Below, in pieces: positions 3,244 through 26,571 of a DNA stretch of 64,000 nt (position 1 is the first letter of the stretch; every line of letters begins with the position of its first letter). The notes below the pieces were generated by a model. That model did no database searches, was not told where the DNA came from, and saw only the letters and a program-made list of their open reading frames with translations. The stretch is from Escherichia coli (lineage in GTDB: Bacteria > Pseudomonadota > Gammaproteobacteria > Enterobacterales > Enterobacteriaceae): assembly GCF_050920415.1 (NCBI RefSeq), contig NZ_CP169309.1. The stretch is one strand, 5' to 3'. The translations under genes were made by a program, and so were the position numbers.

Positions 3244-4017
3244 TCAGGCGTCGACTTTATCCAGCGGCCATGAATCAAACAGATAGCCATCAAAATAAAT
3301 ATCGTCAACGTTCGAGAATTCAAGCAGACGTTGCTTCACGTTTTCCAGATGCTGCCACATTGCCAGCTTCGCCGCTCGGGCGTCTTTTTTGATTAACGCG
3401 GCGAGGATCTGTTTGTGATCGCCCAACCACTCTTTGCGATACAGGCTGTCATCCAGATGGCTGTGCAATTGGATCCACATTGGATTGTTTTCCCGCCACT
3501 GCCAGGACTGACGGAATAGCTCCACCAGCATGCTGTTATGCGTTGCTTCGGCAATGGCGAGATGGAACTGCATATCACCGCTTTCGCTGCTACCCGGCGC
3601 GCTGGAAGCCAGTTCACGCTCTTCCAGTTGCAATGCCTGACGCATTTTGACGATATCTTCGCGGGTAGCCTGCAGGGCGGCAAATTCCGCGATGTTACTT
3701 TCCAGTAACTGACGCGCCTGTAACAGCTCAAAAGGACCCGCATCATTGCAAACGTTGGCATCCGGACCGTCTGTGTTCTGGCTGTCTGAGCTATCAAGAA
3801 CATAAATACCGGCACCCCGGCGCACTTCCACCAGCCCTTTGATCTCCAGCATGATCAGCGCTTCACGTACCACCGTCCGCGTGACATCAAGCATTTCTGC
3901 AATTTCACGCTCCGGCGGCAGCCGTTCGCCAGGATTGTACGGCGTCTTTATGATCAGATCGCGGATCATCGCCCCGACTTCCTGGTAAGGTCTTTGCGCA
4001 GAGGTGGCAGATTTCAT
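3244..4017 (-). CDS. uxuR: GntR-family repressor of the uxu hexuronate operon
   Basis: 257-aa ORF with GntR-type winged HTH near the N-terminus (ERLPPEREIAEMLDVTRTVVREAL) and an FCD-like C-terminus. Confidence 0.9.
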   Translation of the reverse strand: MKSATSAQRPYQEVGAMIRDLIIKTPYNPGERLPPEREIAEMLDVTRTVVREALIMLEIKGLVEVRRGAGIYVLDSSDSQNTDGPDANVCNDAGPFELLQARQLLESNIAEFAALQATREDIVKMRQALQLEERELASSAPGSSESGDMQFHLAIAEATHNSMLVELFRQSWQWRENNPMWIQLHSHLDDSLYRKEWLGDHKQILAALIKKDARAAKLAMWQHLENVKQRLLEFSNVDDIYFDGYLFDSWPLDKVDA

Positions 4018-4052
4018 GGTGTTGTGTCCGTTAGGTGCAGTTAATCAAATTT

Positions 4053-4090
4053 TTGCCGGATGCGTCGTGCACGCCTTATCCGGCCTACAA
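4053..4090. repeat. REP (repetitive extragenic palindromic) element
   Basis: tgccggatgcgtcgtgcacgccttatccggcctacaa, the typical E. coli REP consensus, in the uxuR-uxuB intergenic region. Confidence 0.5.
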
Positions 4091-4230
4091 CGGGCGATTT
4101 TACGGCCCCCGTCAATCTCAAACTATACCATTAGCACTGGAAGTTGGCACGTACAGGTGGGCAAAAAACGAAAACTGGTCAACCAAATATTATTTTGATT
4201 GACCAGTAAGTCTGTTGGGTAATCAGTTAG

Positions 4231-5691
4231 TTACAGCGCAGCCACACACTCGCGCGCACCGCGTTCGCACAGCTGCTGATATGCCGCCGTCACCGCGCCA
4301 ACAAAGTCGGCATTCTGCGGCAGATCATCGGCAAAAATACCGCTCAGGCCCAGCAGCGCTTTCACGCGGTCTGCGCCCTGATACTGCGCGTTAATCTTCT
4401 GGAACTCGGCCAGCATCGGGTCAACCACGTCAATGGCATTACCCTGCTCATCCACACCCTGGGTGTAGCGCATCCAGCCAGCCACGCCGAGCGCCAGGTG
4501 ACGCCAGCTACCGCCGTTTTGTAGGTGCAGACGCACCGGGTCCAGCAAACGCTGCGGTAACTTCTGGCTGCCGTCCATCGCAATCTGCCAGGTACGGTGA
4601 CGCAGAGACGGGTTGCTGAAACGCTCGATCAGCAGCGTCGCATAGGCGTTCAGGTCCGTACCTTCCGGCATCGACAGCGTTGGCGCTTGTTCCTGCATCA
4701 TCAGGGCAAAGGCCGCTTTGCGATAATCCGGATTAGTCATGGTGTCGGCAATGGTTTCATAGCCGCCGAGGTAACCGAGGTACGCCAGGAAAGAGTGGCT
4801 GCCGTTCAGCATACGCAATTTCATCATTTCGAACGGCACAACGTCTGCAACGAACTGTGCGCCCACTTTATCCCAGTCCGGGCGACCATTAACGAAGTTA
4901 TCTTCAATCACCCACTGACGGAACGGTTCGCAGGCAATGGCACACGGGTCATAAACACCCAGCTGGTCAGCAATTTCCTGTAAGGTTTCTGGCGTCGCAG
5001 CCGGAACGATGCGGTCAACCATGGTGCACGGGAAGGTGACATTCTCTTCAATCCATGCAGCCAGCTGCGGATCACGCGCCTGAGCCAGCCCCAGAACGGC
5101 AACTTTTGCCACGTGGCCGTTTTCACGCACGTTGTCGCAGGACATGACAGTAAACGCTTTCAGCCCTTTTTCACGACGCAGACGCAAAGCTTCAACGATG
5201 TAACCAATCGCGGACTTCGGCGCAGTCGGGTTTTCCAGATCGTGCTTGATCAGCGGGTTATTGAGATCCAGCTGACCGCTCGCCGCATCGGCGCAATAAC
5301 CTTTCTCTGTGACTGTCAGGGAGACAATCGCCGTCTGCGGACGCGCCATCGCGTTGAGAATACCTTCACAACCGTCGATTTCCGGGTGCAGCGCTTCTTT
5401 CATCGAGCCAATAATTTTCAGCTCGGTGCTTTCTGCGCCTTTTTCCGCTACGGTGTACAGCAGTTGCTGTTTTTTCAGGTTTTCGATCAGCACACGGTCG
5501 TTGCCTGGCATCAGGTTAACTTCGCAGATCCCCCAGTCGCTATCCGTGCTTTCCAGCAGGTGATGGGTGTACAGCGCCTGGTGCGCGCGGTGAAACGCCC
5601 CGCAACCGAGATGCACAATGCGTGATTCCAGACGAGAATGATCCCATGACGGGCGGGCAACCGGCAGATTGCTGTCAACAATAGTAGTCAT
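4231..5691 (-). CDS. uxuB: D-mannonate oxidoreductase (fructuronate reductase)
   Basis: 486-aa ORF with an N-terminal Rossmann fold (VHLGCGAFHRAHQA), mannitol-dehydrogenase family; synteny uxuA-uxuB-uxuR. Confidence 0.9.
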   Translation of the reverse strand: MTTIVDSNLPVARPSWDHSRLESRIVHLGCGAFHRAHQALYTHHLLESTDSDWGICEVNLMPGNDRVLIENLKKQQLLYTVAEKGAESTELKIIGSMKEALHPEIDGCEGILNAMARPQTAIVSLTVTEKGYCADAASGQLDLNNPLIKHDLENPTAPKSAIGYIVEALRLRREKGLKAFTVMSCDNVRENGHVAKVAVLGLAQARDPQLAAWIEENVTFPCTMVDRIVPAATPETLQEIADQLGVYDPCAIACEPFRQWVIEDNFVNGRPDWDKVGAQFVADVVPFEMMKLRMLNGSHSFLAYLGYLGGYETIADTMTNPDYRKAAFALMMQEQAPTLSMPEGTDLNAYATLLIERFSNPSLRHRTWQIAMDGSQKLPQRLLDPVRLHLQNGGSWRHLALGVAGWMRYTQGVDEQGNAIDVVDPMLAEFQKINAQYQGADRVKALLGLSGIFADDLPQNADFVGAVTAAYQQLCERGARECVAAL

Positions 5692-8823: not shown

Positions 8824-9726
8824 TTATTGATAAACAAAAGTCACGCCAATAATCGATTGCACATTCCCTGCAGTCACCTGCCCTCCGGTACGTGCGTAAT
8901 TTGCCGTTAATCCCAGACTTACCGCCGAAGTCCCTACTGCTCCTAACGATACCGTGTTATTCGCTGGAATAATCGTACCGTTGCGCGTCAACTGTACGCC
9001 GACGCCCTGTGCTGGTGAAAACGACGCGGTATTGGTGAAAATCGAATTGCCCGCATCTGCGGTTGTGCCGGAGAGGTAATACCCCAGGTTCTGGCTTTTC
9101 GCACAATAAACGGTAAGAGGAATAGGTACCGAACCGGGATAGTCCGGCAGAGTCACGGTGACATCACGAGCAGAAACATCACAGCCGCCAGTAGGCACCA
9201 CCACATCATTATTGGCGTAAATATTCCACACAAACTGGAAATCATCGCTGTTATAGTTATTGGTCTGTCGCAAAATTAGCACGGCAATTAATGAGCCAGC
9301 CTTAATCGCCACCCCACCCGCACTGCTCACAGGCGTCAAATAAAGCGCCACCGGCCACGGCTTATCCGTTCTCGAATTATAAACAACGCGCGGCGTTTCG
9401 CTGGTAGTCGGGAAAGGATAGCTACTGCCATTATATTTTACGGTCCCGGAAAAATTAGATAACACGCCGCCATAAGCCGAACCTCGTTGCAGTGTGACAT
9501 AGTCTGTAATGGTTTCCGGGTAATCGTTATGGCAAAAGATTTGCGTCGAAAGATCTACGACCAGGTTTTGCCCCACATTCACGGCGGGCGCAAGGTTTAC
9601 ATAAACATTGGCGCTGCCACCGCCAATAGGGATAGCGGTGCCATTGGCGGTTTTACAGGCGAATGACCAGGCATTTACCGACCAGCCCATCAGCAGTACA
9701 GCAAACAGGGTAATAACTCTTTTCAT
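8824..9726 (-). CDS. fimH: Type 1 fimbrial tip adhesin FimH (mannose-binding)
   Basis: Signal peptide MKRVITLFAVLLMGWSVNAWS followed by mature FACKTANGTAIPIGGG...; 300 aa from the second Met of the track ORF. Confidence 0.9.
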   Translation of the reverse strand: MKRVITLFAVLLMGWSVNAWSFACKTANGTAIPIGGGSANVYVNLAPAVNVGQNLVVDLSTQIFCHNDYPETITDYVTLQRGSAYGGVLSNFSGTVKYNGSSYPFPTTSETPRVVYNSRTDKPWPVALYLTPVSSAGGVAIKAGSLIAVLILRQTNNYNSDDFQFVWNIYANNDVVVPTGGCDVSARDVTVTLPDYPGSVPIPLTVYCAKSQNLGYYLSGTTADAGNSIFTNTASFSPAQGVGVQLTRNGTIIPANNTVSLGAVGTSAVSLGLTANYARTGGQVTAGNVQSIIGVTFVYQ

Positions 9727-9745
9727 TACAATCATCTCTTCGGAT

Positions 9746-10249
9746 TCAGCTGTAGGTATAGGTGATGCTAATCACTGCCTGAATGGTTCCCTGAGTGGCT
9801 CCGCCATTTACCGTCAATGCTCTAACCTGTAACGGGAAGTGCGCTGATTGTGAGGAATCATCCACCTGAACTGTTTTGGTTGCGCCAGTATTCAATGTGT
9901 TGCCACTGTCATCTTGCAGCTCTAACTGGATGTTTTGCGCGGTCCCCTGGTTTTTATAATATCCCGTACTATCGGCTGCCCCGCTGAAGCTGGCGGTGAC
10001 CCTCGATGTTCCCACCGGACAATGAGTCAACTCTAACGCAACATCATGCCAGGCCGATGCCGCACCGGCAGACACGAGACTGAAAGAATAAAGATCGCCG
10101 AGATCAACCGTGGCATTAGTGGTGGAAACCGTGCACGGTTTGGCGACGACCTTACCGTTCACGGTGATCGTGACATCGGCTGCCTGTAGCGTCGCACTTA
10201 CGAGCGTCAACATTGCCGCCAATAAACACCCACGTATGCGCCATTTCAT
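9746..10249 (-). CDS. fimG: Type 1 fimbrial minor subunit FimG
   Basis: About 167-aa pilin-like ORF with signal peptide, between fimH and fimF. Confidence 0.85.
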   Translation of the reverse strand: MKWRIRGCLLAAMLTLVSATLQAADVTITVNGKVVAKPCTVSTTNATVDLGDLYSFSLVSAGAASAWHDVALELTHCPVGTSRVTASFSGAADSTGYYKNQGTAQNIQLELQDDSGNTLNTGATKTVQVDDSSQSAHFPLQVRALTVNGGATQGTIQAVISITYTYS

Positions 10250-10261
10250 GAGCATCTCCTG

Positions 10262-10792
10262 TTACTGATATTCAAGAGTGAAGGTAGCCGTGGCATTGAT
10301 ATGCCCCGCAGTGACAGGCACCTGTGTCGCCATTAGCCGGGCGTAAAAATTCAGCGTATTTGGTTTACCCGGCGTCAGGGTCGTCCACGAAATCGCGGAG
10401 GATGGCGCATTAAGGGGGATCTGATTTTGTTGCTCATTCAGAAGCTGTATTCCCAGCCCCGCAGCCGCTGACACCGTATTTTCAAGTGCAAGCAGATTGG
10501 CATTGTGACTATCTGCAACGCCGGTAAACCCAACCTTTACGGCAGAAACGGCATTACCACAGGGTGACAGCAAAATACGAAATGGAACGACAGGAGTCGT
10601 CGCGCCAATGTTGTTAAATTGCTTCGCCGCGTTTTCCATCAGATCAACAGTAAAATTGGTTGATTCAGCGGCCACACTACAGCCGTTATCTCTGACATAG
10701 CCGCGGATAGTAATCGTGCTATCCGCAGCCAAAGCGTGACTTACCGCCAGCCACAAAAAAGCGCACAGAAGATAAAAAGGTTTGCTTTTCAT
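10262..10792 (-). CDS. fimF: Type 1 fimbrial minor subunit FimF
   Basis: About 176-aa pilin-like ORF with signal peptide and C-terminal TFTLEYQ. Confidence 0.85.
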
Positions 10793-10801
10793 CACGCCCC
10801 C

Positions 10802-13438
10802 TTAACGACATTCAGCTGATAGCTGGGTTAATAACTGCTGCTGACTCTCTGGTGGCAGTTGATAATTGGCGACACAGTGAGCATTTTCCTCTTCTCCCCA
10901 TTTCACCTGAACTTTTCCCGCTAAAGGCATCCCGCTGAGATAAACCTGACCATTATCCGCAACAATGCCGCTACTCTGGCTACTCTCTGATGTGACCATC
11001 GCCCCAAACGGCAGCGGCTTATTATTATGGGTTAGCGTCATGAGCAGTTTTATCCCAACACGCGCTTTAAACTCTGCTCGCACAATTGCCCCACGGGTGG
11101 GAACAACGTTAGCGACCGCGTTATCTAAATCGACGTTATCAGCCAGGGTATTGGTATCCAGCGCCACTCTATTTTCCCGATATTCTGTGGCATAAGGCAG
11201 CACGGCATAGCCGCGCCAGTCGGTACGCACCCCCGTCTGGTTTTCAACTTTTGCATCTTTTGCGCCAGGCGCTTTAACAAGCACCACCGTATCGTTTAAC
11301 GGCTGCCCCAGCGTTACGCCATTGGCATGAGCCAATACCCCACCGCTGATTCCGTAATAGAGCTGCTTAATATCATCGCTATGGCTGTAACCAATGTTGG
11401 CATTGCCGTAGCCACCGCGATAATTCAGCGCGGCGTAGCCTGTACTTCCGCTATTTCCATCGCCTCCCCCGGCATAGCCGGTTTGCACGCTATAACTGAG
11501 GTTGTTGTCTTCCAGCAACGTACCGTATACACCGGCCAGATTGGTCATCCGACCGTTGAGATCGTGTGACATGCTGTAGCTGGCACTGGCATGTCGCCAC
11601 TGAGATTTACTGTCAGAACGCAGCCAGTGGCTGAAAGGAATATTGATGTTAAGAGCCAACATCTGATCCCGTCCTTTTTGCCACGCGTTTTTCGTCAGGC
11701 TATAGCTGAGCGTCCAGTTGATATCTTCGAAAGCAGTATTTAATCCAGCCTGGAATTGCTCATCGACATTACTCGTTCCCCAATAAGTTTGATGGCTACC
11801 ACTCAAATACAGTGTTGATGTGCGTCCGAGTTGCTGAGTAACAGTGAGCTGTAATTTCCCGCGTTTGTTATAAGCGAGATTGTAATAGTCGGTAAATTTC
11901 GGCTTAACCTGAATAACACCATCCTGTGTTTCGATGTTGTAGCCACTCATTCGGCTGTATGTTGTATCAGCGAAATTAAAATACCCGCTGGTCGAGTAAC
12001 GGTAACCCACTAACTGAAAATTCGTACCTGACTCATTGAGCGATTTGTTATAGAGAAAACGCACCGATTGACCGTCATGCTGACTGTCATCAGGAAGTGT
12101 GGAATTAGCCTGCGTCATATCCACGGACAGAGCGCCCAGTGCCCCCATGTTTTTCCCGATACCGAAATTAAAAGCGCGATAACGATCCGCCAGTTGCGTT
12201 CCACCATATATTGTCCAGCCAGCCGGAAGGCCGTGGAGTAATGTACTCTGGAAAAAACGGGGTTTATCCTGTTGCGCATTTCCACTACGGTATTCTCCAG
12301 CCGTAATGGAATAACGAGTATGCCCTTCACGTTGCAAAAGCGGGACTGACGAATAGGGTACGGTAAAGATCTGCGTGCTACCGTCAGCCTCTTTAATCGT
12401 TACCTGCAAGTCACCACTATTACCTGCGGCATAGATATCGTTGATGGTAAAAGGCCCCGGTGGCACCGTACTATTATAAATGTCATACCCATTTTGTTTA
12501 ATAGTGACCTGTGCAGTACCACGCGCAATACCGTGGATCACCGGGGCAAATCCTCTTTGGCTATCGGGTAACATATTGTCATCTGAGGCCAATTGTGCGC
12601 CGCGAAAGTTAATACCATCGAAAATATCGCCCTGAGTATAACCATCACCCAGCGTCAGCCGGGAACGTAACGGAATTATGTCTCGCTCAAGCCAGGTATT
12701 GATATGTTGCCATTTATTTTTGCTACCTGATGAACTGTCGCTACTGTTATAACTCCAGGTGGTATTGTCGCGTAAACGCCATGCACCAATATTTAACCCA
12801 CTCTGTAGGTTTAAATATGCATAATGGCTGTTACCACCAATCCGATTCTGTACACTATTTCCGCTGAAATTATAATTGAGCAATCCGGCATTAATACCGG
12901 GGTCCCATAACTCTGGAGGAATATAACCACGCGCGCGATTACTCATAAATGCCTGAGGGATCGTCAGGTTGAGTCGCTGCTGACCAACATCTAAATGCGC
13001 AGTAGCGTCATGGATCATTGTGGTTAATGGCACGCAGGCATCATCCGCCAGCAAATTCATACCGGAGACAGAAGCCGTATTCAGCCCCATACTGGCAAGT
13101 TGAGCGCGCGTCAGGCAGGGAACAATCCCTTGTTCACTGTCGCCCGTATTAAAGGTGACATCACGCGTTGCCATATAACCATTATTCAAATAGATATCGA
13201 CGCGATACGTCCCAGGTGGTAATTCTTGACCATTCTCAAAACGCGATAAATCAGCCACAGCCTGGGGATCATCCGCTAAAAAACGCGGGTTAAAATAGAG
13301 TTCGGCAGATGACAAAGGTGCCTGTGTGGCAAAAACACAGGCAACAGAGAGCCGAACAAAAAAACCAGCCAGACGAGGCTTACGAATATGCAAGCATTGT
13401 GTGTTTCGCTGGTAAAGTCTTAAATTCAGATATGACAT
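10802..13438 (-). CDS. fimD: Outer-membrane fimbrial usher FimD
   Basis: 878-aa ORF, usher-like, in the canonical fim position. Confidence 0.95.
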   Translation of the reverse strand: MSYLNLRLYQRNTQCLHIRKPRLAGFFVRLSVACVFATQAPLSSAELYFNPRFLADDPQAVADLSRFENGQELPPGTYRVDIYLNNGYMATRDVTFNTGDSEQGIVPCLTRAQLASMGLNTASVSGMNLLADDACVPLTTMIHDATAHLDVGQQRLNLTIPQAFMSNRARGYIPPELWDPGINAGLLNYNFSGNSVQNRIGGNSHYAYLNLQSGLNIGAWRLRDNTTWSYNSSDSSSGSKNKWQHINTWLERDIIPLRSRLTLGDGYTQGDIFDGINFRGAQLASDDNMLPDSQRGFAPVIHGIARGTAQVTIKQNGYDIYNSTVPPGPFTINDIYAAGNSGDLQVTIKEADGSTQIFTVPYSSVPLLQREGHTRYSITAGEYRSGNAQQDKPRFFQSTLLHGLPAGWTIYGGTQLADRYRAFNFGIGKNMGALGALSVDMTQANSTLPDDSQHDGQSVRFLYNKSLNESGTNFQLVGYRYSTSGYFNFADTTYSRMSGYNIETQDGVIQVKPKFTDYYNLAYNKRGKLQLTVTQQLGRTSTLYLSGSHQTYWGTSNVDEQFQAGLNTAFEDINWTLSYSLTKNAWQKGRDQMLALNINIPFSHWLRSDSKSQWRHASASYSMSHDLNGRMTNLAGVYGTLLEDNNLSYSVQTGYAGGGDGNSGSTGYAALNYRGGYGNANIGYSHSDDIKQLYYGISGGVLAHANGVTLGQPLNDTVVLVKAPGAKDAKVENQTGVRTDWRGYAVLPYATEYRENRVALDTNTLADNVDLDNAVANVVPTRGAIVRAEFKARVGIKLLMTLTHNNKPLPFGAMVTSESSQSSGIVADNGQVYLSGMPLAGKVQVKWGEEENAHCVANYQLPPESQQQLLTQLSAECR

Positions 13439-13504
13439 TATTCCTCCGGTTTAAAATTACCCGGCAGTCAATTCTTTTTATTCAGGCGAAAAATTCCCCC
13501 TGCG

Positions 13505-14230
13505 TTATACCATTACGCCCGTCATTTTTGGAGTAAGTGCGCCATAATCATTTATTGTTCGGTAAGTAATGTTGCTTCCTGCATCAGAAGGTAATTTAAC
13601 TGTGCTTTCGCCCATTGGAGGCACCAATGCATTTTCAAGAACCCGAGTTCCGGCATTCAACTCTGTTACCGTCAGGTAATAGGGTGTCGGGTTAATCAGC
13701 GTCAGAGAATTCGCGCTACGACGAAATCTTAACTTTTCTGCGGCCTGATCGGGTGGCAACGCTAATTTAGCCGGGCGATAGTACAATTTAATGCGGCTGA
13801 TAATTGCGAGCTGTAGCGTATTCTCAGTCAATTTTGATTTATCCATTGACGGAATCGCTTTAACGTTCATCCAGAATAAACTTTCCCGGTCCTGTGGCAA
13901 TTGGTTATTTGTTGCATCAAGAATACGCAAGGTATTCTCTTTTTTTCCCTTCATCGCAAACAGAGGTGGTGTCACGATAAAACGACCATCCTTTACACCA
14001 TCGGCATTTTCTACCCATGATTGAATTAAATAGGTGCTATTTTCATCATTATTTGTCACGGCAAGTTGTACTTGTTTTTGCCCTGCCGGATAAATAACGC
14101 GAGTCGCACCTAAGGCCACTCCTGCTTCCGCGCGTCCGGCAGCCATCATTGCCATGATCATCAGGATACCTGCCAGCAAGCAGAATGTTATTTCCTGCAA
14201 TTTCCTTACATTGACGTTTTTATTACTCAC
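13505..14230 (-). CDS. fimC: Periplasmic fimbrial chaperone FimC
   Basis: 241-aa ORF with signal peptide and PapD-like chaperone sequence. Confidence 0.95.
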   Translation of the reverse strand: MSNKNVNVRKLQEITFCLLAGILMIMAMMAAGRAEAGVALGATRVIYPAGQKQVQLAVTNNDENSTYLIQSWVENADGVKDGRFIVTPPLFAMKGKKENTLRILDATNNQLPQDRESLFWMNVKAIPSMDKSKLTENTLQLAIISRIKLYYRPAKLALPPDQAAEKLRFRRSANSLTLINPTPYYLTVTELNAGTRVLENALVPPMGESTVKLPSDAGSNITYRTINDYGALTPKMTGVMV

Positions 14231-14266
14231 TGTCCTGTTCCTGTTATCACATTATCTGCTGAACAA

Positions 14267-14806
14267 TTACTGATAGGTTAAAGAGAACCAGGCCTGAGCA
14301 TTGGCGATGCCGCCAGTAACCCGACGCCCGGTAGCACGATATTTGGCGATGAAATGTAACGAAGTAGAGCCTGAGTAAAGCCGTTTCCAGTTTGCTGGAG
14401 GACGATTAATCGGTACAAGGTTTCCTTCATCATCAAACAACGCTACGCCAATATTGGTGGCAATCCCTGGCCCCTCTCCCACGGAAAGCACATCCGGATT
14501 TTTACCATCCGCGACACCGTGAAACGCCACACCCACACGTTCACTCACCACCGTGCTACATTCCCGTAAATGAATAACAAAAGGCACCGGTGCGCTATCT
14601 TCCCCAACCGCATGAAACCGGTTACTGCTGATTTGCCCCATATTGACCGTCATTTGTTTATCACCAGCTTCAATCCGGCAAGCTTCTGCAATAATGACGC
14701 CCTGAAATTGCATATTTCCGCCGGGCAACGTGGTGTTCCATTTATTTCCGGCCAGAGCAAACATTGGCAGCAACGACGCTAATAGAAATAATCTCTTCCT
14801 TTTCAT
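14267..14806 (-). CDS. fimI: Fimbrin-like protein FimI
   Basis: Track ORF extends upstream; start taken at [20 protein letters not shown] (179 aa); pilin-like C-terminus ...AWFSLTYQ. Confidence 0.8.
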
Positions 14807-14870
14807 CGTTATTTTTATCGCACAAGGGTGGGCATCCCTGCCCGTAAAGACGTCCCTGAACCTGGGTAGG

Positions 14871-15419
14871 TTATTGATACTGAACCTTGAAGGTCGCATC
14901 CGCATTAGCAGCACCTGGGGTTGCGGCACCGGTTGCAAAGTAACGCGCCTGGAACGGAATGGTGTTAGTACCGTTATTCAGGGTTGTTTGTGCACTAAAT
15001 GTCGCACCGTCCAGCGCCAGCGCAGCACCGGTTCTGTCCAGAATTTGCACACCAACGTTTGTTGCGCTACCTGTAGCAGAACTCTGCAGAGCCAGTACAT
15101 CAGTATGCGTAGCATCAATTGCCGTACCTAAGAAGGCAACAGCGGCTTTTGTAGCAACAGTGGTATCGCAATCATTCAGCTGAATGTTAAAACCAACGGC
15201 AGAGCTGGTTGCTCCAGTCTGCTTCAGGCTAGCGGTACGAACCTGTCCTAACTGAACGGTTTGATCAACAGAGCCTGCATCAACTGCGCAAGCGGCGTTA
15301 ACAACTTCCCCTTTGAAGTGAACGGTCCCACCATTTACCGTCGTAGTATCGGCCAGAGCCGCTGCGGAACTGAGGGACAGAGCCGACAGAACAACGATCG
15401 CCAAAGTTTTAATTTTCAT
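14871..15419 (-). CDS. fimA: Type 1 fimbrial major subunit FimA
   Basis: Start at [23 protein letters not shown] (182 aa) rather than the upstream non-ATG of the track ORF; C-terminal ...ATFKVQYQ. Confidence 0.95.
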
Positions 15420-15537
15420 GCTGCTTTCCTTTAAAAAAACTGTTTCTAAATCGACATGGGCAGTCGTTCTGTACACTTTGTTTTGAAACGAATTGGACTG
15501 CCAACACTGCACAGTTCTTCCCCAAAAGATGAAACAT

Positions 15538-15851
15538 TTGGGGCCATTTTGACTCATAGAGGAAAGCATTACGCACGAACTTTCTTAGTTTATTATTTGG
15601 ATTTATATTCTATTAATACATTCTTTTATAGATTTTCATATTGAACACGGTGGTTTTTGGAGAGATGAATGAGGAAGTTGCTTCGAGACACAGAAACGTT
15701 AACTTTACCTATAGCGGAGGTGATGTGAAATTAATTTATAAGAGAAACAATTTACATATCAAACAGTTAGTTGCTTTATATCGTTTTTTTATATTTTTAT
15801 GCTTGAGAACAAATACAAAACTTTTTTATGATATGGACAGTTTGGCCCCAA
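15538..15851. promoter_or_regulatory. fimS: fimS invertible phase-variation switch (314 bp) bounded by 9-bp inverted repeats; carries the fimA promoter
   Basis: ttggggcca at 15538-15546 and its exact reverse complement tggccccaa at 15843-15851, 314 bp end to end, lying between fimE and fimA. Confidence 0.85.
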
Positions 15852-15898
15852 TTGTCTTATATTTCTTTATCTTTTCATATTATTATCAATAAGTTACA

Positions 15899-16495
15899 TC
15901 AGGCATCTTCTCTTTTTAATTTTTCGTTTATGAGATTATTTCTTTCCCATAATCCGGCAAAACGTGCAGCATTACTGGCGGTATAACGCACAGTATGGCG
16001 AATATTTCGATGCCCGAGATAATCCTGAATTAAACGGGTATCTGCACCACGCTCCGCCAGTTCATAACCGCAAGCATGCCTTAACATATGAGGATGAGTC
16101 TGCGTCACGGTTCCAGCTTCAATACCGGCATCGCGAATAATGCGATAGGCCTGCTGGCGAGAAAGTCGACTCCCGCGGCGAGAAATAAATATGGCGTCGG
16201 TCTGGTCAGCGCCTTTCCAGTTAGTACGTTCCTGGGTCCAGCGCTCCACAGCTTCACGCTCATCAAAACGTAACGGGTGAACGGTAGAAAATCCGTTCTT
16301 CAGTCGGCGGATATTTATTCGACCTTCGTTAAGGTCAAGATCCTGATAATGCAGATCAAGCAGTTCACTAATACGCATCCCATGCCGATATGCCAACAAA
16401 ATTAGGCAATAATCTCTGGCTCCCGTTGCCCCGTAACAAACCGCCTGCATCATGTCCTGAACTTCTTTACCGGTAAGATAACGACGTTTACTCAC
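15899..16495 (-). CDS. fimE: Tyrosine site-specific recombinase FimE (ON-to-OFF inversion of fimS)
   Basis: 198-aa ORF with integrase-family catalytic residues (HPHMLRHACGY...LGHRNIRHTVRYT); the recombinase gene nearest fimS. Confidence 0.95.
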   Translation of the reverse strand: MSKRRYLTGKEVQDMMQAVCYGATGARDYCLILLAYRHGMRISELLDLHYQDLDLNEGRINIRRLKNGFSTVHPLRFDEREAVERWTQERTNWKGADQTDAIFISRRGSRLSRQQAYRIIRDAGIEAGTVTQTHPHMLRHACGYELAERGADTRLIQDYLGHRNIRHTVRYTASNAARFAGLWERNNLINEKLKREDA

Positions 16496-16972
16496 AATAG
16501 TAGTACTCCTGACTGAGATATATTTGAATGAATACCTATAGGAAACCTCGATCGGTTAAAATTAGCCCAATAGATAAAAAGATAACCACACAGGAAGTTA
16601 TGTGGCTATCAGTCAATTACATTAAATATCATACAAAAATAAAATATCACTGATGTGACAACATCTATTTTCATTGATTTGATTCAATATAACAATAGAT
16701 TGCAGCGGATTAACTTCCAGTTGCTTAAAAAATAAAGAAAAAAGTGCAGAAACAGGAGAACTTGAGTGATGTGTAAATTTATGAATGATTTTGTTTATTT
16801 ATTTTGAAGAACATAAACCATTGTATTTTGTATGGATATGGTTAACTTAATGTTTATTATGATAATTAAGGATCACACTTACAATAACATCAATTAATAA
16901 ATGGTTAATCATTTTTGATATATCGTAAGAATAATGTATTTTTTAACACCATCCCTGGTATCTCATCTATCT

Positions 16973-17575
16973 CTATAAAACAGCGTGATGCTGTCGTCCT
17001 CTGGCTCTATCCCAGATGCCGTAAAAACGCCCTGCATTGCTGGCGGTATACCAGACAGTATGACGAATATTGCGATGCCCAAGATAATCCTGGATAAGTC
17101 GTGTATCTATTCCCATATTCGCCAAAGCAAAACCACACGAATGGCGTAACATATGCGGATGAATCTCCAGTGATAACCCAGCATTACCACCAGAAGTCGA
17201 GATAATATGGTAAAACTGTTGCCGAGAAAGCGGGTTCCCCTTACGTGATAAAAATACCCACTCGCTCTCAGCATGCGGATAAGAAGTACGTATACTCAAC
17301 CAGTTTTTTAAAGCCTGAACTTCTTTGTTCAATAGCGGGTGCGTTGTTGAAAAGCCTTTTTTTAATCGATGGATATATATACACTTTGCCTTAAGATCAA
17401 TATCCGAAATCCTCAATCGACAAATTTCACTCGCCCGGAAACCATGAATAAAACAAAGCAAAGTCAGACAATAATTACGTGCTGCATGAGGCCCGGTATT
17501 TGCTGCTTTAAGGAGTGACTCGATTTCACTATGGGTCAGGAAGTTCCTTTTTTTGTTATCAGCCTTATTCTTCAT
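16973..17575 (-). CDS. fimB: Tyrosine site-specific recombinase FimB (bidirectional inversion of fimS)
   Basis: 200-aa paralogue of FimE (HPHMLRHSCGF...LGHRNIRHTVWYT), upstream of fimE. Confidence 0.95.
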   Translation of the reverse strand: MKNKADNKKRNFLTHSEIESLLKAANTGPHAARNYCLTLLCFIHGFRASEICRLRISDIDLKAKCIYIHRLKKGFSTTHPLLNKEVQALKNWLSIRTSYPHAESEWVFLSRKGNPLSRQQFYHIISTSGGNAGLSLEIHPHMLRHSCGFALANMGIDTRLIQDYLGHRNIRHTVWYTASNAGRFYGIWDRARGRQHHAVL

Positions 17576-20909: not shown

Positions 20910-21890
20910 ATGAACGCAATAATATCGCCCGATTATTACTATGTTCTTACCGTTGCTGGTCTGTCTAATGCCATGGCGTATGGCGAAGGACTGCCATTAC
21001 CGGACAGGGAAGATACGCCTCATCCCAGAATTAAACAATTAGCGAGATTTGCGCATACGCATCCCGGAGGCCCGTCATGTCACTTTAACGACATTATTCC
21101 ACTGACTCACTGCCCACACGATGTTCAGGATATGCAGGGTTATCACCATCCTCTGGCAACGAATCATCAAACACAGTACGGCACCGTTGGCCAGGCTCTG
21201 CATATTGCACGGAAATTACAGCCCTTTATTCCTGATAACGCGGGGGTTCTCATCGTTCCATGTTGCCGTGGCGGATCGGCTTTTACTGCGGGCAGCGAAG
21301 GGACATATTCAGAACGGCACGGAGCCAGCCATGATGCTTGTCGTTGGGGAACGGATACCCCTCTATACCAGGATTTAGTCAGCAGAACGCGAGCCGCACT
21401 GGCAAAAAATCCGCATAACAAATTCCTCGGCGTATGCTGGATGCAAGGCGAATTTGACTTAATGACAAGTGACTACGCGTCACACCCTCAACACTTTAAT
21501 CATATGGTTGAAGCCTTTCGTAGGGATCTAAAACAATACCATTCTCAGCTTAATAATATTACTGGCGCGCCGTGGTTTTGCGGCGATACCACCTGGTACT
21601 GGAAAGAAAGTTTCCCTCATGCGTATGAAGCTATTTATGGCAATTATCAAAATAATATTTTAGCCAATATTATTTTCATCGACTTCCAGCAACAAGGTGA
21701 AAGAGGGCTGACGAACGCGCCTGATGAAGATCCGGACGATTTAAGCACGGGATATTTCGGTTCAGCGTACCGGTCACCGGAGAACTGGACGACGGCACTG
21801 CGAAGCAGTCATTTCAGCGCGGCAGCCCGTCGGGGGATTATTTCTGACAGGTTTGTAGAAGCAATTTTGCAGTTTTGGAGCGAAAGGTGA
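20910..21890 (+). CDS. nanS: 9-O-acetyl-N-acetylneuraminate esterase (YjhS)
   Basis: 326-aa ORF downstream of nanM in the same orientation. Confidence 0.8.
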   Translation: MNAIISPDYYYVLTVAGLSNAMAYGEGLPLPDREDTPHPRIKQLARFAHTHPGGPSCHFNDIIPLTHCPHDVQDMQGYHHPLATNHQTQYGTVGQALHIARKLQPFIPDNAGVLIVPCCRGGSAFTAGSEGTYSERHGASHDACRWGTDTPLYQDLVSRTRAALAKNPHNKFLGVCWMQGEFDLMTSDYASHPQHFNHMVEAFRRDLKQYHSQLNNITGAPWFCGDTTWYWKESFPHAYEAIYGNYQNNILANIIFIDFQQQGERGLTNAPDEDPDDLSTGYFGSAYRSPENWTTALRSSHFSAAARRGIISDRFVEAILQFWSER

Positions 21891-22472
21891 GCGGGGAGTT
21901 TATTCATGGGGGATGTCCTTGTCCGTTCCCAAAACAGGCAACAAAAAACAAATGAGATCAAGGTAATATCTCTTCACTTGCAGGCTCGAACAGCAGGCAA
22001 TTGCCAATATAATAATCTGGCACAAGGGTGAAAAACGCGCACCGCATAAACCGTTGTTATTGCTTAAAGATTAGCCGGATGCCTTAATAGACATCCGCGC
22101 CTTTTCGATTATGGCTCGGAAATCTACGAACCTCTGCACAGTTTACTGGAACGTTTTGGACCACAGCGTTCACAGTACCGACCTGATATGCCGTTCTGGC
22201 GATTATAAGGCGACGGATTCTGGCAAATAGACGATGATAATATGCTTAATGATGTTCAAAGAAATTAGGCCATCATTATATTATTGCTTGCATTTTCTTT
22301 CATTCCCAAAAGCACCCGCCATTAATCCCAGGCGCATTATGCAAAGGAAAATGATTAGGTAAACAATAAGATTTATAATCAGGAAAGGCGACTCGCAATA
22401 AAACGCAAAGTCGCCTTAACATTGGTAAAATATGCCCTTTACTACTCCTGTATCATGAACGGCTCATCACAT

Positions 22473-25400
22473 TTAAAGCTGACGTTGATCCAGACTGCTA
22501 TATATTGCCTTTATTTCATTTTTTACGCTTTCGCCACGGTACACCAAAGACGTATCGTATCGTTGATACTTATCTTCCCGTGCAGCACTGAACCAGTTAA
22601 AAGATCCGACACACAGCAGTTCTTCATCCTCAATCACAATTTTGCTGTGGACACGATTAACCAATTTCGTAGCGATACCCATCTTATTGAGCTTTTCAAC
22701 AGCATCATTCAGCAGATGTTTTTTCTCCTGACGCTTATCATCATCGACATGCGCTATATTGCAGTTTTTATCCGTCACCACAGTAATATCAATGCCCCGG
22801 GAACGGGCCAAAGCCATTGATGCCAGAAATCCCGTTTGCTCCATTTTTTGCCAGGATAACCAAGGGGAAATAATCGTTATTTTCTTTTGAGCTCCGGCAA
22901 GAGTCATGTTCAAAAATTCATCATGCTGCTCCACGCCATGCAGCGTTGAAATTTGTGTATGTGCGGAAATTAAATCCTGTCGTTTATGAAACTCAAATTG
23001 CAACGCATTATTATCTGAAGAAAAGAGATATTTTGCCAATAACCCTCGCGGCGAAAATGCGGGCTGCATCTCGATAAGGTCCATATCGCCAAATACCAGA
23101 AAACTATCTTTAGCGCGTGAGACAGCAACATTGAGGATACTGCTGTTGCTATCAAGAAACCTGCCATCTTCATGTTTTGAGTAGACTGGAGAAAAGAGAA
23201 CAATCGCCCTTTCCGCCCCCTGCAAGGAGTGCACAGTCCCCACTGTCAGTGAACCCTCCTCGTCTTTGCCATTAATTTCCAGCTTACGCAATGACGTTTT
23301 GATAGCATTAACCTGCGCCGAAAATGGCGTCACAACACCAACAACTTTGTACAGTGGTTCCCCGTAATGGCGCTCTATATCATCCTTATGTGCCACCAGC
23401 CATGCTGCTATTGTTTCAGCTTCAAGAGGGTTATAACGGCTCCCCCCATTTGGCTTCATGCCTCTACCATCAATATGTAAATATCCCATTGCGGGGAAAA
23501 TCGTCCCTTTTTCCATCCCTCTTTTAGGCTGCAACTTACCGTGATAGCAAAGTGAGTTACAGTAGCCGATGATGTTATTGAAACAGCGACGATGCTCATA
23601 CAGATACATTCCGCGCTCGAACTTGGGATCATACTGGTAGTGAGAGTTAAACTGGGCTACCTGCATTACGCTGCCAGATGCTGCACTTTTTCCAGACCCA
23701 CACACGTGAGTATATGTATTTATTAACTCTTCCTGAGTGCCACCAGAAATAATATTCTCCTCAAGCATATTGCCCATATCAGTGACGGGTAGACAATTCC
23801 AGATTGGAGCTATTTGCTCCGTATCGCCAATCACCAGCGCTTTCTTCGCCAATGCAAAGGAAGCTGCAGCAACCTCCGGGAGTACCTGCCCGGCTTCATC
23901 GACAATCAGTAAATCAGCAAAGTTATATAAATAATTATTATCCGATGTTCTATCGCCACCAAAAGATTTTCTTCTGTTCATATGGTAAGGCAACATGTAG
24001 CAGGTCATCACCACACAAGGAGTAAGTTTCATTCTTCTTAGCCAACGAGCCTCGGCGATAGTTATCCCGGTAATTCCTTTTTCTTTTTGCAAATTATCTA
24101 TAGCTGCCATATCAATCAGCCAACGCCCCTCCCAATAATGGGTCGCTACCAAGAACGCTGGAAAACGAATCTGAGTATCGGCAAGTTCATCCGCTCCTGA
24201 AAGATTCAATTCATCGTCACCTCTGTAACCCAAAGCATAAGTCAACTCACGCCATTGTTTTGCAGCTTCTATTTCGCGTCGGGCTATATCCTTCGCATAG
24301 TTGATGTTCTGTTGGCACTCATCCTGCTCCTTTTGCGTTTTAGCAATCAAACTATCAATAAATTCATCAATATCTTCGGGATAATTTCCCTGGAACGATG
24401 TCATTCTTGTGCCAAACGTAGAGTCCAGGAAGAGGTTAATCTGGTAATGGCGTTTAGTACGAACAGCAGGAAGCCATGACAAAACCGCATACACTAGCGA
24501 CTCATCAGCACGGTATTGCTGCCACTGCTTTTTACCTCTTGTTAAAAGTGAAATTTCATTGCCAATATTGAGAAGACGTGTGTTTTCGTCCTGAAGATAC
24601 TGGTCGAGATTCTCACTGATGGCTCGCTGTTCATGGCGGATATCATTAAGCCTGCGCCATGTGGGTTCGATTTGCTGAAGTTGAATAAACTGTGAAGTTA
24701 AACGTTCATGCAAAAGCGTCACTACATGCTCTGGTGAATTGCACTCTCCAGCTCCAAACGCCACCTCCGCTTTTTCAAGGTAAAATGCCCGGGCTTTTTC
24801 CAGATATTCCTGGGATTCAACGTGGTTAAAAAAATCTTCAGTCTGGTATTTCTTCGCAGCCTCAACCTGACGGCTTTTAGACGGAAAATAAGCGCCATAG
24901 CTTATTACCTCCGGCAACCAACGACCAGCCATTACGCCAAAACCAGTAGAGAAATCTTTTCCAAAGGCTTCAATAATATTGGTGACGGCCTGATTGTTAG
25001 TTGATGTGGCAATAATTACAGGAGGTTCAGCTTGATTAAGTGCGGCTCTAGTCCATTCGGTGGCGATAATAGAAAGCACCAGCGTAGTTTTACCCGTTCC
25101 CGGAGGACCGTTAACAGCGAGCATATCCCCCTGCTGTTGAGTCAGATAATGGCTCAGGGCATCGCGCTGCGCCACTGCCAGCGGAAACTTATCGCCGGAA
25201 TGCCCCAGACGTTCGCAGAACATAGCATTCTTAGCGAGAAGTGGCTCTAGTGGAACCATTTCATTTGAGGCAAAACGCGTTAATAGAGGAACCTTAACCT
25301 GGCTCATCAGCAGATGGTCATACAAAGGCAGGATATGAACACTGGCCCCTACATGCTGGCTAGCTTTAACAATATAACCGTATCCAGCCCGTTCGTATGG

Positions 25401-25988
25401 CTCAGATGTAGCGACCCAATTTCCAGCGACGTTTCTTAAAAGGTTATCTGACTGTTGAAGATAATTTTGCCAATGCTGACGATACCTGGCATGGCGTTCC
25501 GCTTTCTCTTCGTCAGTTTCTTTGTAATGTTCTGGTTGACCTTCATTAATGGTGGCTGTGTTATGCGTAGTTTTGTATTTGTCATATTGCACCAACTCAC
25601 CAATAGAAAAATGACCGGAAGGGAGAGGTTCAAGCAGATCGCGGGGAATAGTGGCTGAAGCGGCAGGAAACAAAAAACCTTCCCTATTAAGAAGAGCGGA
25701 GGTAACCAGTGGCGTAATAATTGCGGGTGCACCTGCCGTTTGCTCTTTGCCATGCTTTACAATGCGGTTCCACACCTGGGGCCGTAACACGACTTCAACG
25801 TTTTTTACAGACTCCCCTTCACCGTCAAAAAATGCCCGAATAGTTTCGTCATCCAACTGCCCTGCGGTGATATTTATCCACCGAATGAATGATTCCGTAT
25901 CTTTACGTGAAAACGTTCCTTTGCCAGATTCGGCGTCAGCTAGGGAGTTGCGCCAGTATGAAGTGAATCCCAATGTATTGCTGTCCAT
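22473..25988 (-). CDS. Large SF1 helicase (Upf1/Dna2-like ATPase core) fused to a C-terminal phospholipase-D/HKD nuclease domain; candidate single-gene defence protein
   Basis: 1171-codon [15 protein letters not shown] Walker A (aa 294-302; nt 25083-25109); LLIVDEAGQ motif II (DEAGQ aa 697-701; nt 23886-23900); [11 protein letters not shown] and [10 protein letters not shown] resembling SF1 motifs V/VI; C-terminal [21 protein letters not shown] = HxK(x)4D...GSxN signature (nt 22596-22649); sits immediately 3' of tRNA-leuX. Confidence 0.8.
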
Positions 25989-26253
25989 TTCTCATTCCGT
26001 GACATAATAGAAATCATTGATTTCATTGATGTAAATATTACTTATGATTAAACATTGTCCACGATGCGAGCGCGATCGCAATAAATATTGTGCCTGGAGG
26101 ATGGATTAGATTTTCTGAAAGAGCTAAATCCTTAATAGATAAACGCGTACATACTTGGTTCGGTATTCTTAAGGGATTTAATATGGATTGAACCAGGTTG
26201 ACGTTAGTTGAAAAAAACAGTGGAAAAGATTTGTGTGGCGCGGATTTCAGGCA

Positions 26254-26278
26254 TAAAAAAAGACCTCAGTTGAGGTCT
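26254..26278 (-). terminator. Probable intrinsic terminator of tRNA-leuX
   Basis: Hairpin agacctca/tgaggtct; read on the minus strand it is followed by a run of 7 T, directly after the tRNA 3' end. Confidence 0.5.
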
Positions 26279-26291
26279 ATTTACATACTTT

Positions 26292-26376
26292 TGGTGCCGA
26301 AGGCCGGACTCGAACCGGCACGTATTTCTACGGTTGATTTTGAATCAACTGCGTCTACCGATTTCGCCACTTCGGC
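26292..26376 (-). tRNA. leuX: tRNA-Leu (anticodon CAA)
   Basis: Reverse complement reads GCCGAAGTGGCGAAATCGGTAGACGCAGTTGATTCAAAATCAACCGTAGAAATACGTGCCGGTTCGAGTCCGGCCTTCGGCACCA: 85 nt, cloverleaf-compatible, CAA anticodon, encoded CCA end. Confidence 0.95.
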
Positions 26377-26571
26377 ACTGAAGAGGTATGCGGAAAACGT
26401 TGTGGATTATACCTGTCGCACGCCACCATGCAAGCGCCAGCTTGCTCGCACCTCGCTAAGTGCTGAAATTTTCAGCATTGCATACAGCGATGTGCAACCT
26501 TTGTCACACTCCAGGCACCACGCCCTACCATGCTCTACACTTCCCAGACAACACCAGAGAAGGACAAAAAT

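Follow-up and report, generated by a model that had tools for sequence, protein, structure and literature searches.

Type 1 pili of E. coli carry at their tip the two-domain adhesin FimH. Allosteric switching of its N-terminal lectin domain and C-terminal pilin domain takes the protein from a tense state of low affinity to a relaxed state of high affinity and back. The fimH allele in the DNA analysed here (a stretch of 64,000 nucleotides, hereafter referred to as the window) has Ala at residue 27 and Asn at residue 78 of the mature protein. A sequence-only reading had set these residues against Val27 and Ser78 of the K-12 allele and had counted positions 27, 70 and 78 among the pathoadaptive sites that affect mannose binding under shear. 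The question raised by this locus is whether the two residues are adaptations of the window strain or whether it is K-12 that has changed. We consider it highly probable that the gene is an intact, ordinary natural fimH allele with the Ala27/Asn70/Asn78 residues of the outgroups, and that its differences from K-12 arose on the K-12 side and are not adaptations of the window strain.

The fimH gene of the window

An intact fimH gene occupies positions 8824–9726 of the window on the minus strand. Its translation is 300 residues long and is followed by a stop codon; the open reading frame, the translation and Pfam searches identify the product as the D-mannose-specific adhesin of type 1 fimbriae. 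The longest open reading frame starts three codons upstream, at 9735. The start at 9726 is the one used in K-12 and in a RefSeq genome with identical fimH (NZ_CP169399.1), whose annotation places fimH at the same coordinates as the window frame. The signal peptide MKRVITLFAVLLMGWSVNAWS (21 residues, 9664–9726, minus strand) does not differ from that of K-12. It is followed by the lectin, or mannose-binding, domain (mature residues 1–158, 9190–9663, minus strand), delimited by Pfam and a residue check, and by the pilin domain (mature residues 160–279, 8827–9186, minus strand), which has zero amino-acid differences from K-12.

Both domains were recovered in profile searches. The N-terminal domain matched PF09160 (FimH_man-bind) over the full profile, 1–145, with 245.7 bits (cut-off 25; E-value 1.6e-73), and the C-terminal domain matched PF00419 (Fimbrial) at residues 181–300 with 33.1 bits (cut-off 25.6; E-value 8e-08). 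A search of the same protein against NCBIfam returned only the YehD and FimI models, both below threshold, so the assignment to the FimH family rests on Pfam, operon context and near-identity to K-12. The residues of the mannose pocket and the tyrosine gate, a list that we take to be established structural knowledge of FimH, are all intact: F1, I13, N46, D47, Y48, I52, D54, Q133, N135, Y137, D140 and F142. Two of them, N135 and Q133, are reported to be essential (PMC1618777, PMC5302871). Cysteines at 3, 44, 161 and 187 supply the two disulfide pairs.

The gene is the last of fimAICDFGH and lies downstream of fimB, fimE and the switch fimS. The rest of the cluster (fimG, fimF, fimD, fimC, fimI, fimA, fimS, fimE and fimB; 9746–17575, minus strand) was located from its open reading frames and is annotated as intact in NZ_CP169399.1. 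On one side the cluster is flanked by gntP and uxuAB, on the other by nanCMS.

Residues 27, 70 and 78 in E. coli and its relatives

Direct alignment of the window gene with MG1655 fimH (NC_000913.3, 4548808–4549710) revealed differences at 27 of 903 nucleotides (97.0% identity). Twenty-five of these are silent. The two replacements, in mature numbering, are V27A (GTC to GCC) and S78N (AGT to AAT). This ratio of replacement to silent changes, with a dN/dS of 0.025 (Nei-Gojobori), indicates that the gene is under strong purifying selection; amino-acid replacements are not in excess. Codon 27 (GCC) is found at 9583–9585, codon 70 (AAT) at 9454–9456 and codon 78 (AAT) at 9430–9432, all on the minus strand. 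At codon 70 K-12 likewise has Asn, the nearest relatives of the window allele have His and the B2-type clade has Ser. The mature protein contains the segments ...NLAPAVNVG... (Ala27) and ...VKYNGSS... (Asn78), and both residues had thus been read correctly from the sequence. The K-12 residues given in the sequence-only reading also proved to be right: the alignment could have revealed the same residues in both proteins, but positions 27 and 78 differ.

The protein variant and its polymorphic sites have already been described, and their discovery value is little. Variant 17 of Dreux 2013 (strain 6259), defined relative to K-12 by V27A and S78N only, has the same changes as the window protein and shows no protein-level difference from it as far as the table of that work goes (PMC3554634). 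The same protein is annotated as WP_000832216.1 in MFDS1022581, the strain of NZ_CP169399.1, and in strain A21, and at least 1,000 public contigs encode it. The FimH of K-12/J96 (V27/N70/S78; PDB 1KLF, 1QUN, 4XOB) shares 298 of 300 residues, the pocket, the domains and the operon context with the window, but has Val27 and Ser78 and the 27 nucleotide differences given above. The nearest solved structure is that of F18-type FimH from the S70/N78 clade (PDB 3JWN, 4XOD, 4XOE). It has Ala27 and Asn78, as the window does, and its mature sequence shows a single difference, Ser70 in place of Asn70. FimH22 of ST131 clade B (ZH063, SaT040, S250) agrees with the window in A27/N70/N78, and Asn at both 70 and 78 has been reported for H22 (PMC5369007). 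It also carries A242V (PMC9428848), whereas the window protein keeps Ala242, and the window gene differs from that of ZH063 at 24 nucleotides. Finally, the consensus, or 'evolutionarily primary', FimH (A27/N70/S78; SMS-3-5, EH485) resembles the window protein in Ala27, Asn70 and the lack of any hotspot change. It is one residue away, having Ser78, the derived state by the outgroup comparison described below.

The frequency of each state was assessed by exact-word BLAST queries against 5,426 complete E. coli genomes, with each 28-base seed spanning the diagnostic base. Counts around codon 27 with an 83-mer and a 33-mer were incomplete because silent polymorphisms at gene nucleotides 131, 137 and 141 split the Ala27 alleles, and they were replaced by a count with a 30-mer that has nucleotide 143 in every seed. 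The Ala27 30-mer was present in at least 3,987 of the 5,426 genomes. The Val27 33-mer was found in at least 834, a lower bound, since it was counted on K-12-like flanks only. At positions 70 and 78, the N70/S78 haplotype was detected in 4,533 genomes, S70/N78 in 324 and N70/N78 in 66; together these make up 4,923 of the 4,959 genomes that have a near-full-length fimH. Exact-word counts of this kind miss alleles with additional polymorphisms nearby. Roughly four in five alleles thus have Ala27, and Val27 of K-12 belongs to a minority. Asn78 is likewise in the minority, at about 8%, and its occurrence without Ser70 is uncommon, at about 1.3%. The genome set is skewed to clinical and laboratory strains, so that these values are not population estimates. 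Seven N70/N78 genomes were sampled. Six encode the ST131-H22 type protein with A242V, and one, strain A21, encodes exactly the window protein. At the nucleotide level the allele is rare: the exact sequence is present in one of the 5,426 complete genomes, and only seven have a fimH that is at least 98.2% identical.

To establish the direction of change, FimH homologues from other genera were considered. A search with the consensus A27/N70/S78 protein as query, a choice that leaves the outgroup columns unaffected, yielded 108 aligned homologues with 67–87% identity from Kluyvera, Citrobacter, Klebsiella and other genera. At position 27, 62 of the 108 have Ala and one has Val. At position 78 Asn is found in 91 and Ser in six. 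Ser70 occurs in 72 of the homologues and Asn70 in 30, and since the more distant genera mostly have Ser70, the polarity of this position is ambiguous.

Closer outgroups were obtained by scanning a single genome of each species with a degenerate DNA pattern; the matches included neither the main E. coli representative nor E. fergusonii, E. marmotae or E. ruysiae. Two sequences were retained. The first, fimH of E. albertii NBRC 107761 (3418–4304 of its extracted locus), is 87% identical and is a pseudogene in this type strain: a 16-nucleotide deletion (gene nucleotides 421–436) causes the frame to stop early. The second comes from E69 (CP089930.1, 4.44 Mb), which is labelled E. coli. Over 4.5 kb (uxuA-gntP-fimHGF) E69 is 93–95% identical to both the window and K-12, and its fimH is 42–52 bases from each sampled E. 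coli fimH. E69 was used as an outgroup only on account of this 5–7% divergence from both, a divergence more in keeping with a cryptic Escherichia lineage than with E. coli itself.

Both close outgroups encode A27/N70/N78, and both share the window bases at gene nucleotides 143, 296, 312 and 315. Since they have the window state at both sites, K-12 is derived at both, through A27V and, in the main E. coli clade, N78S. Site-by-site ancestral inference of this kind is approximate, as is the neighbour-joining tree described below, as fimH recombines. The mildly new point is that Ala27 and Asn78 together would be the old states by comparison with the outgroups, with the common 'consensus' Ser78 being derived. 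The result bears on reference bias: variant calls made against K-12 make Ala27 seem a mutant residue, though it is K-12 that carries the derived Val27. The greater age of Asn78 relative to the common E. coli Ser78 is useful when FimH variants are polarised in studies of pathoadaptation. It is also relevant to the choice of a 'wild-type' sequence in vaccine and anti-adhesive work.

Predicted function and the question of pathoadaptation

The variant named in the literature is A27V, which Hommais 2003, as cited in Dreux 2013, is said to have described as pathoadaptive; this is the change of K-12, and the polarity implied by a pathoadaptive Ala27 is reversed. That 27, 70 and 78 are well-documented polymorphic sites, as the sequence-only reading had it, agrees with the literature (PMC3554634, PMC1618777). 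Its implication that the window allele carries pathoadaptive changes at them is not supported. Ala27 is not only the majority and the close-outgroup state but also the published consensus, being present in most natural variants, and the K-12 protein is a consensus-clade FimH with A27V (Dreux 2013, PMC3554634). On the ground that most natural variants have A27, the same authors considered V27A unlikely to be pathoadaptive and contested an earlier published claim to the contrary (PMC3554634). Asn78, the state of the outgroups, is treated in the literature as a clade marker and not as a hotspot. When introduced alone into K-12 FimH, S78N left the haemagglutination titre the same, and N70S reduced it to half (PMC1618777).

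An effect of these residues on mannose binding had also been claimed. According to Bouckaert 2006, none of residues 27, 70 and 78 lies near the mannose pocket, and isolated lectin domains of variants at these sites have the same affinity for mannosides (PMC1618777). Differences have been described with FimH that has Ala27 as its sole difference from K-12/J96, for which haemagglutination was 4–8 times lower (PMC1618777). A passage in PMC5369007 that cites Sokurenko credits A27V with an about ten-fold higher ratio of mono- to tri-mannose binding, and the Val27 of K-12/J96 FimH is associated with stronger static binding (PMC1618777, PMC5369007). Judged from such published single-site data, Ala27 would favour the low-affinity tense state relative to Val27 of K-12. 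Weaker static (monomannose) binding than that of the K-12 allele would be expected, with normal mannose specificity, and Asn78 would have hardly any functional effect; the phenotype of the Ala27 and Asn78 pair is an extrapolation from the single sites. The window protein is predicted most likely to be a normal catch-bond adhesin of the commensal type with low static affinity.

Could Ala27 and Asn78 nevertheless be adaptive, change the shear dependence of mannose binding and be markers of a pathogenic lineage? Kalas 2017 lists residue 27 as one of three positively selected residues that modulate FimH conformation by shifting the equilibrium between the tense and relaxed states (PMC5302871), and alleles of the S70/N78 clade colonised CEABAC10 mice better than K-12 and consensus alleles did (PMC3554634). 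The low count of the N70/N78 haplotype might also be taken to single out the allele. The mouse effects, however, belong to alleles of the S70/N78 clade, such as that of LF82 (S70/N78 with T158P), and not to the window protein. Zero hotspot replacements are found in the latter: the sites of A27V/T, G66, G73, A106, T158, V163, R166 and Y195 are all consensus (Dreux 2013, Table 2), and the common residue is present at each of hotspots 62, 66, 73, 106, 158, 163, 166, 188, 195, 242 and 269. The sole genome with the identical allele, MFDS1022581, is from South Korea, and its source was food of animal origin. Together with the majority and outgroup status of Ala27, the argument of Dreux 2013 and the neutral S78N titre, this leaves an adaptive origin of the two residues very improbable.

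A recent replacement would be expected as a single allele with no linked silent variation. Instead, the window protein is encoded by two alleles, that of the window and that of strain A21, which differ at 28 silent sites; the protein is either old or was assembled more than once. Recency of Asn78 is not supported either, because it is linked to a block of silent bases shared with the outgroups.

Lineage of the allele and its surroundings

A table of variable sites was compiled for 23 fimH alleles (the window and 22 others). Two features of the window allele stand out in it. The first is the silent-site block at gene nucleotides 312, 315, 318 and 321 (T, C, G and T; 9406–9415, minus strand). 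In the sampled alleles Asn78 is always accompanied by 312T, 315C and 321T, and 312T and 315C are also present in both close outgroups. The second is a rare silent haplotype in the pilin-domain half of the gene (nucleotides 546–681; 9046–9181, minus strand), which is wholly or mostly common to only four of the 22 other alleles: R32_14_1F, LR-58-1, EC42405 and 24A16CRGN010. The nearest relatives include R32_14_1F, which is 6 bases away and has His70, and LR-58-1, which has a K-12-like block around codon 78. The His70 relatives and the K-12-like block of LR-58-1 indicate that the lineage is mosaic and that position 70 varies within it. In a neighbour-joining tree rooted on E69, which is approximate on account of recombination, the window allele belongs to a small clade that is separate from the B2-type S70/N78 clade as well as from the main N70/S78 clade. 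Judged from these comparisons, the window nucleotide allele appears to represent a small fimH lineage that branches deeply, is mosaic in part and is seldom met with in sequenced genomes.

Among the nearest relatives, His70 (CAT) was observed not only in R32_14_1F but also in EC42405, 24A16CRGN010 and 2020CK-00188. Descriptions of this site usually give Asn or Ser, to which His adds a third residue, and no mention of N70H was found in the FimH literature surveyed for the window allele.

It is quite possible, and we put this forward tentatively, that A27/N70/N78 is the ancestral Escherichia FimH. Each of the two main E. coli clades would then be a single step away from it, the consensus clade through N78S and the B2-type clade through N70S; the 'primary' Ser78 and the K-12 Val27 would both be derived, and the window allele would be a survivor of an old lineage.

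Asn78 could, alternatively, have been acquired by homologous recombination, an allele with N70 having received the short block around codon 78 from a B2-type allele (S70/N78) instead of retaining it from an ancestor. Gene nucleotides 291–330 of the window differ by 0–1 bases from every Asn78 allele and by 4–6 from Ser78 alleles, and nucleotides 1–290 differ by 5–8 bases from B2-type alleles, as expected of such an import. Exchange of similar segments is seen in LR-58-1, which combines the window background with a K-12-like block at 296–321, and in 2020CK-00188, whose 5′ half resembles that of the window allele and whose 3′ half is of the common type. Yet codon 70, only 24 nucleotides upstream, is not in the B2 state. 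Moreover, 296A, 312T and 315C are the states of both close outgroups and 318G of the window matches E69 and not the B2 alleles, so a retained old haplotype explains the block equally well. We regard the import as somewhat unlikely. It is, besides, compatible with an ancestral A27/N70/N78, because blocks of old haplotypes are reshuffled in fimH.

A further route to the same protein would be an S70N reversion within the S70/N78 clade, which would make the window FimH a recent derivative of a B2-type protein. S70N is among the recurrent hotspots of Dreux 2013, where variants with N70/N78 stand next to the S70/N78 clade (PMC3554634), and the N70/N78 alleles of strain A21 and of the ST131-H22 type do fall in the B2-type DNA clade. 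The window DNA, however, is 24–28 bases from these alleles and lies in the other, small clade of the rooted tree. B2-type alleles of the S70/N78 clade, including those of IHE3034 and WP2-W18, share Asn78 with the window, which has Asn at position 70; they are 25–27 bases from it and form a separate clade in the neighbour-joining tree. Reversion may explain other N70/N78 alleles, but there is very little chance that it gave rise to the allele of the window.

Several features of the surrounding DNA were also recorded. The window and the MFDS1022581 chromosome (NZ_CP169399.1) differ over the 64 kb by three base mismatches and one IS2 present only in MFDS1022581. The window strain is, therefore, a very close relative of MFDS1022581 or an IS-free isolate of it. 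The IS2 breaks nanS of MFDS1022581 at a site corresponding to about 20962–20966 of the window, where nanS (sialate O-acetylesterase, 326 aa, 20910–21890) is intact. The uxu-fim-nan segment (1–25000) is a rare haplotype as a whole: only a single complete genome reaches 99% identity over the 25 kb, and the next best are 98.4–98.5% identical.

The intergenic region between fimE and fimA (15420–15898) is 88.7% identical to that of MG1655, with 52 mismatches over 479 bases, and is far more divergent than fimH (97%). The invertible switch fimS (15538–15851) within it is colinear with the MG1655 reference orientation, which is presumably the OFF phase. Its two inverted repeats of 9 bp, TTGGGGCCA, are both preserved, with a distance of 305 bases between them.

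The spacer between gntP and fimH is 184 bases long in the window and 242 in K-12. A 'hypothetical protein' of 52 codons annotated there in NZ_CP169399.1 (8660–8818) is probably not a real gene, because the spacer appears to hold REP-like palindromic repeats. On the other side of the cluster, the stretch from nanS to a tRNA-Leu gene (about 21900–26400) contains, according to the annotation of MFDS1022581, the frameshifted remnant of a restriction endonuclease that binds phosphorothioated DNA and the helicase YjhR (1,171 aa), content of the variable kind expected beside a tRNA integration site.
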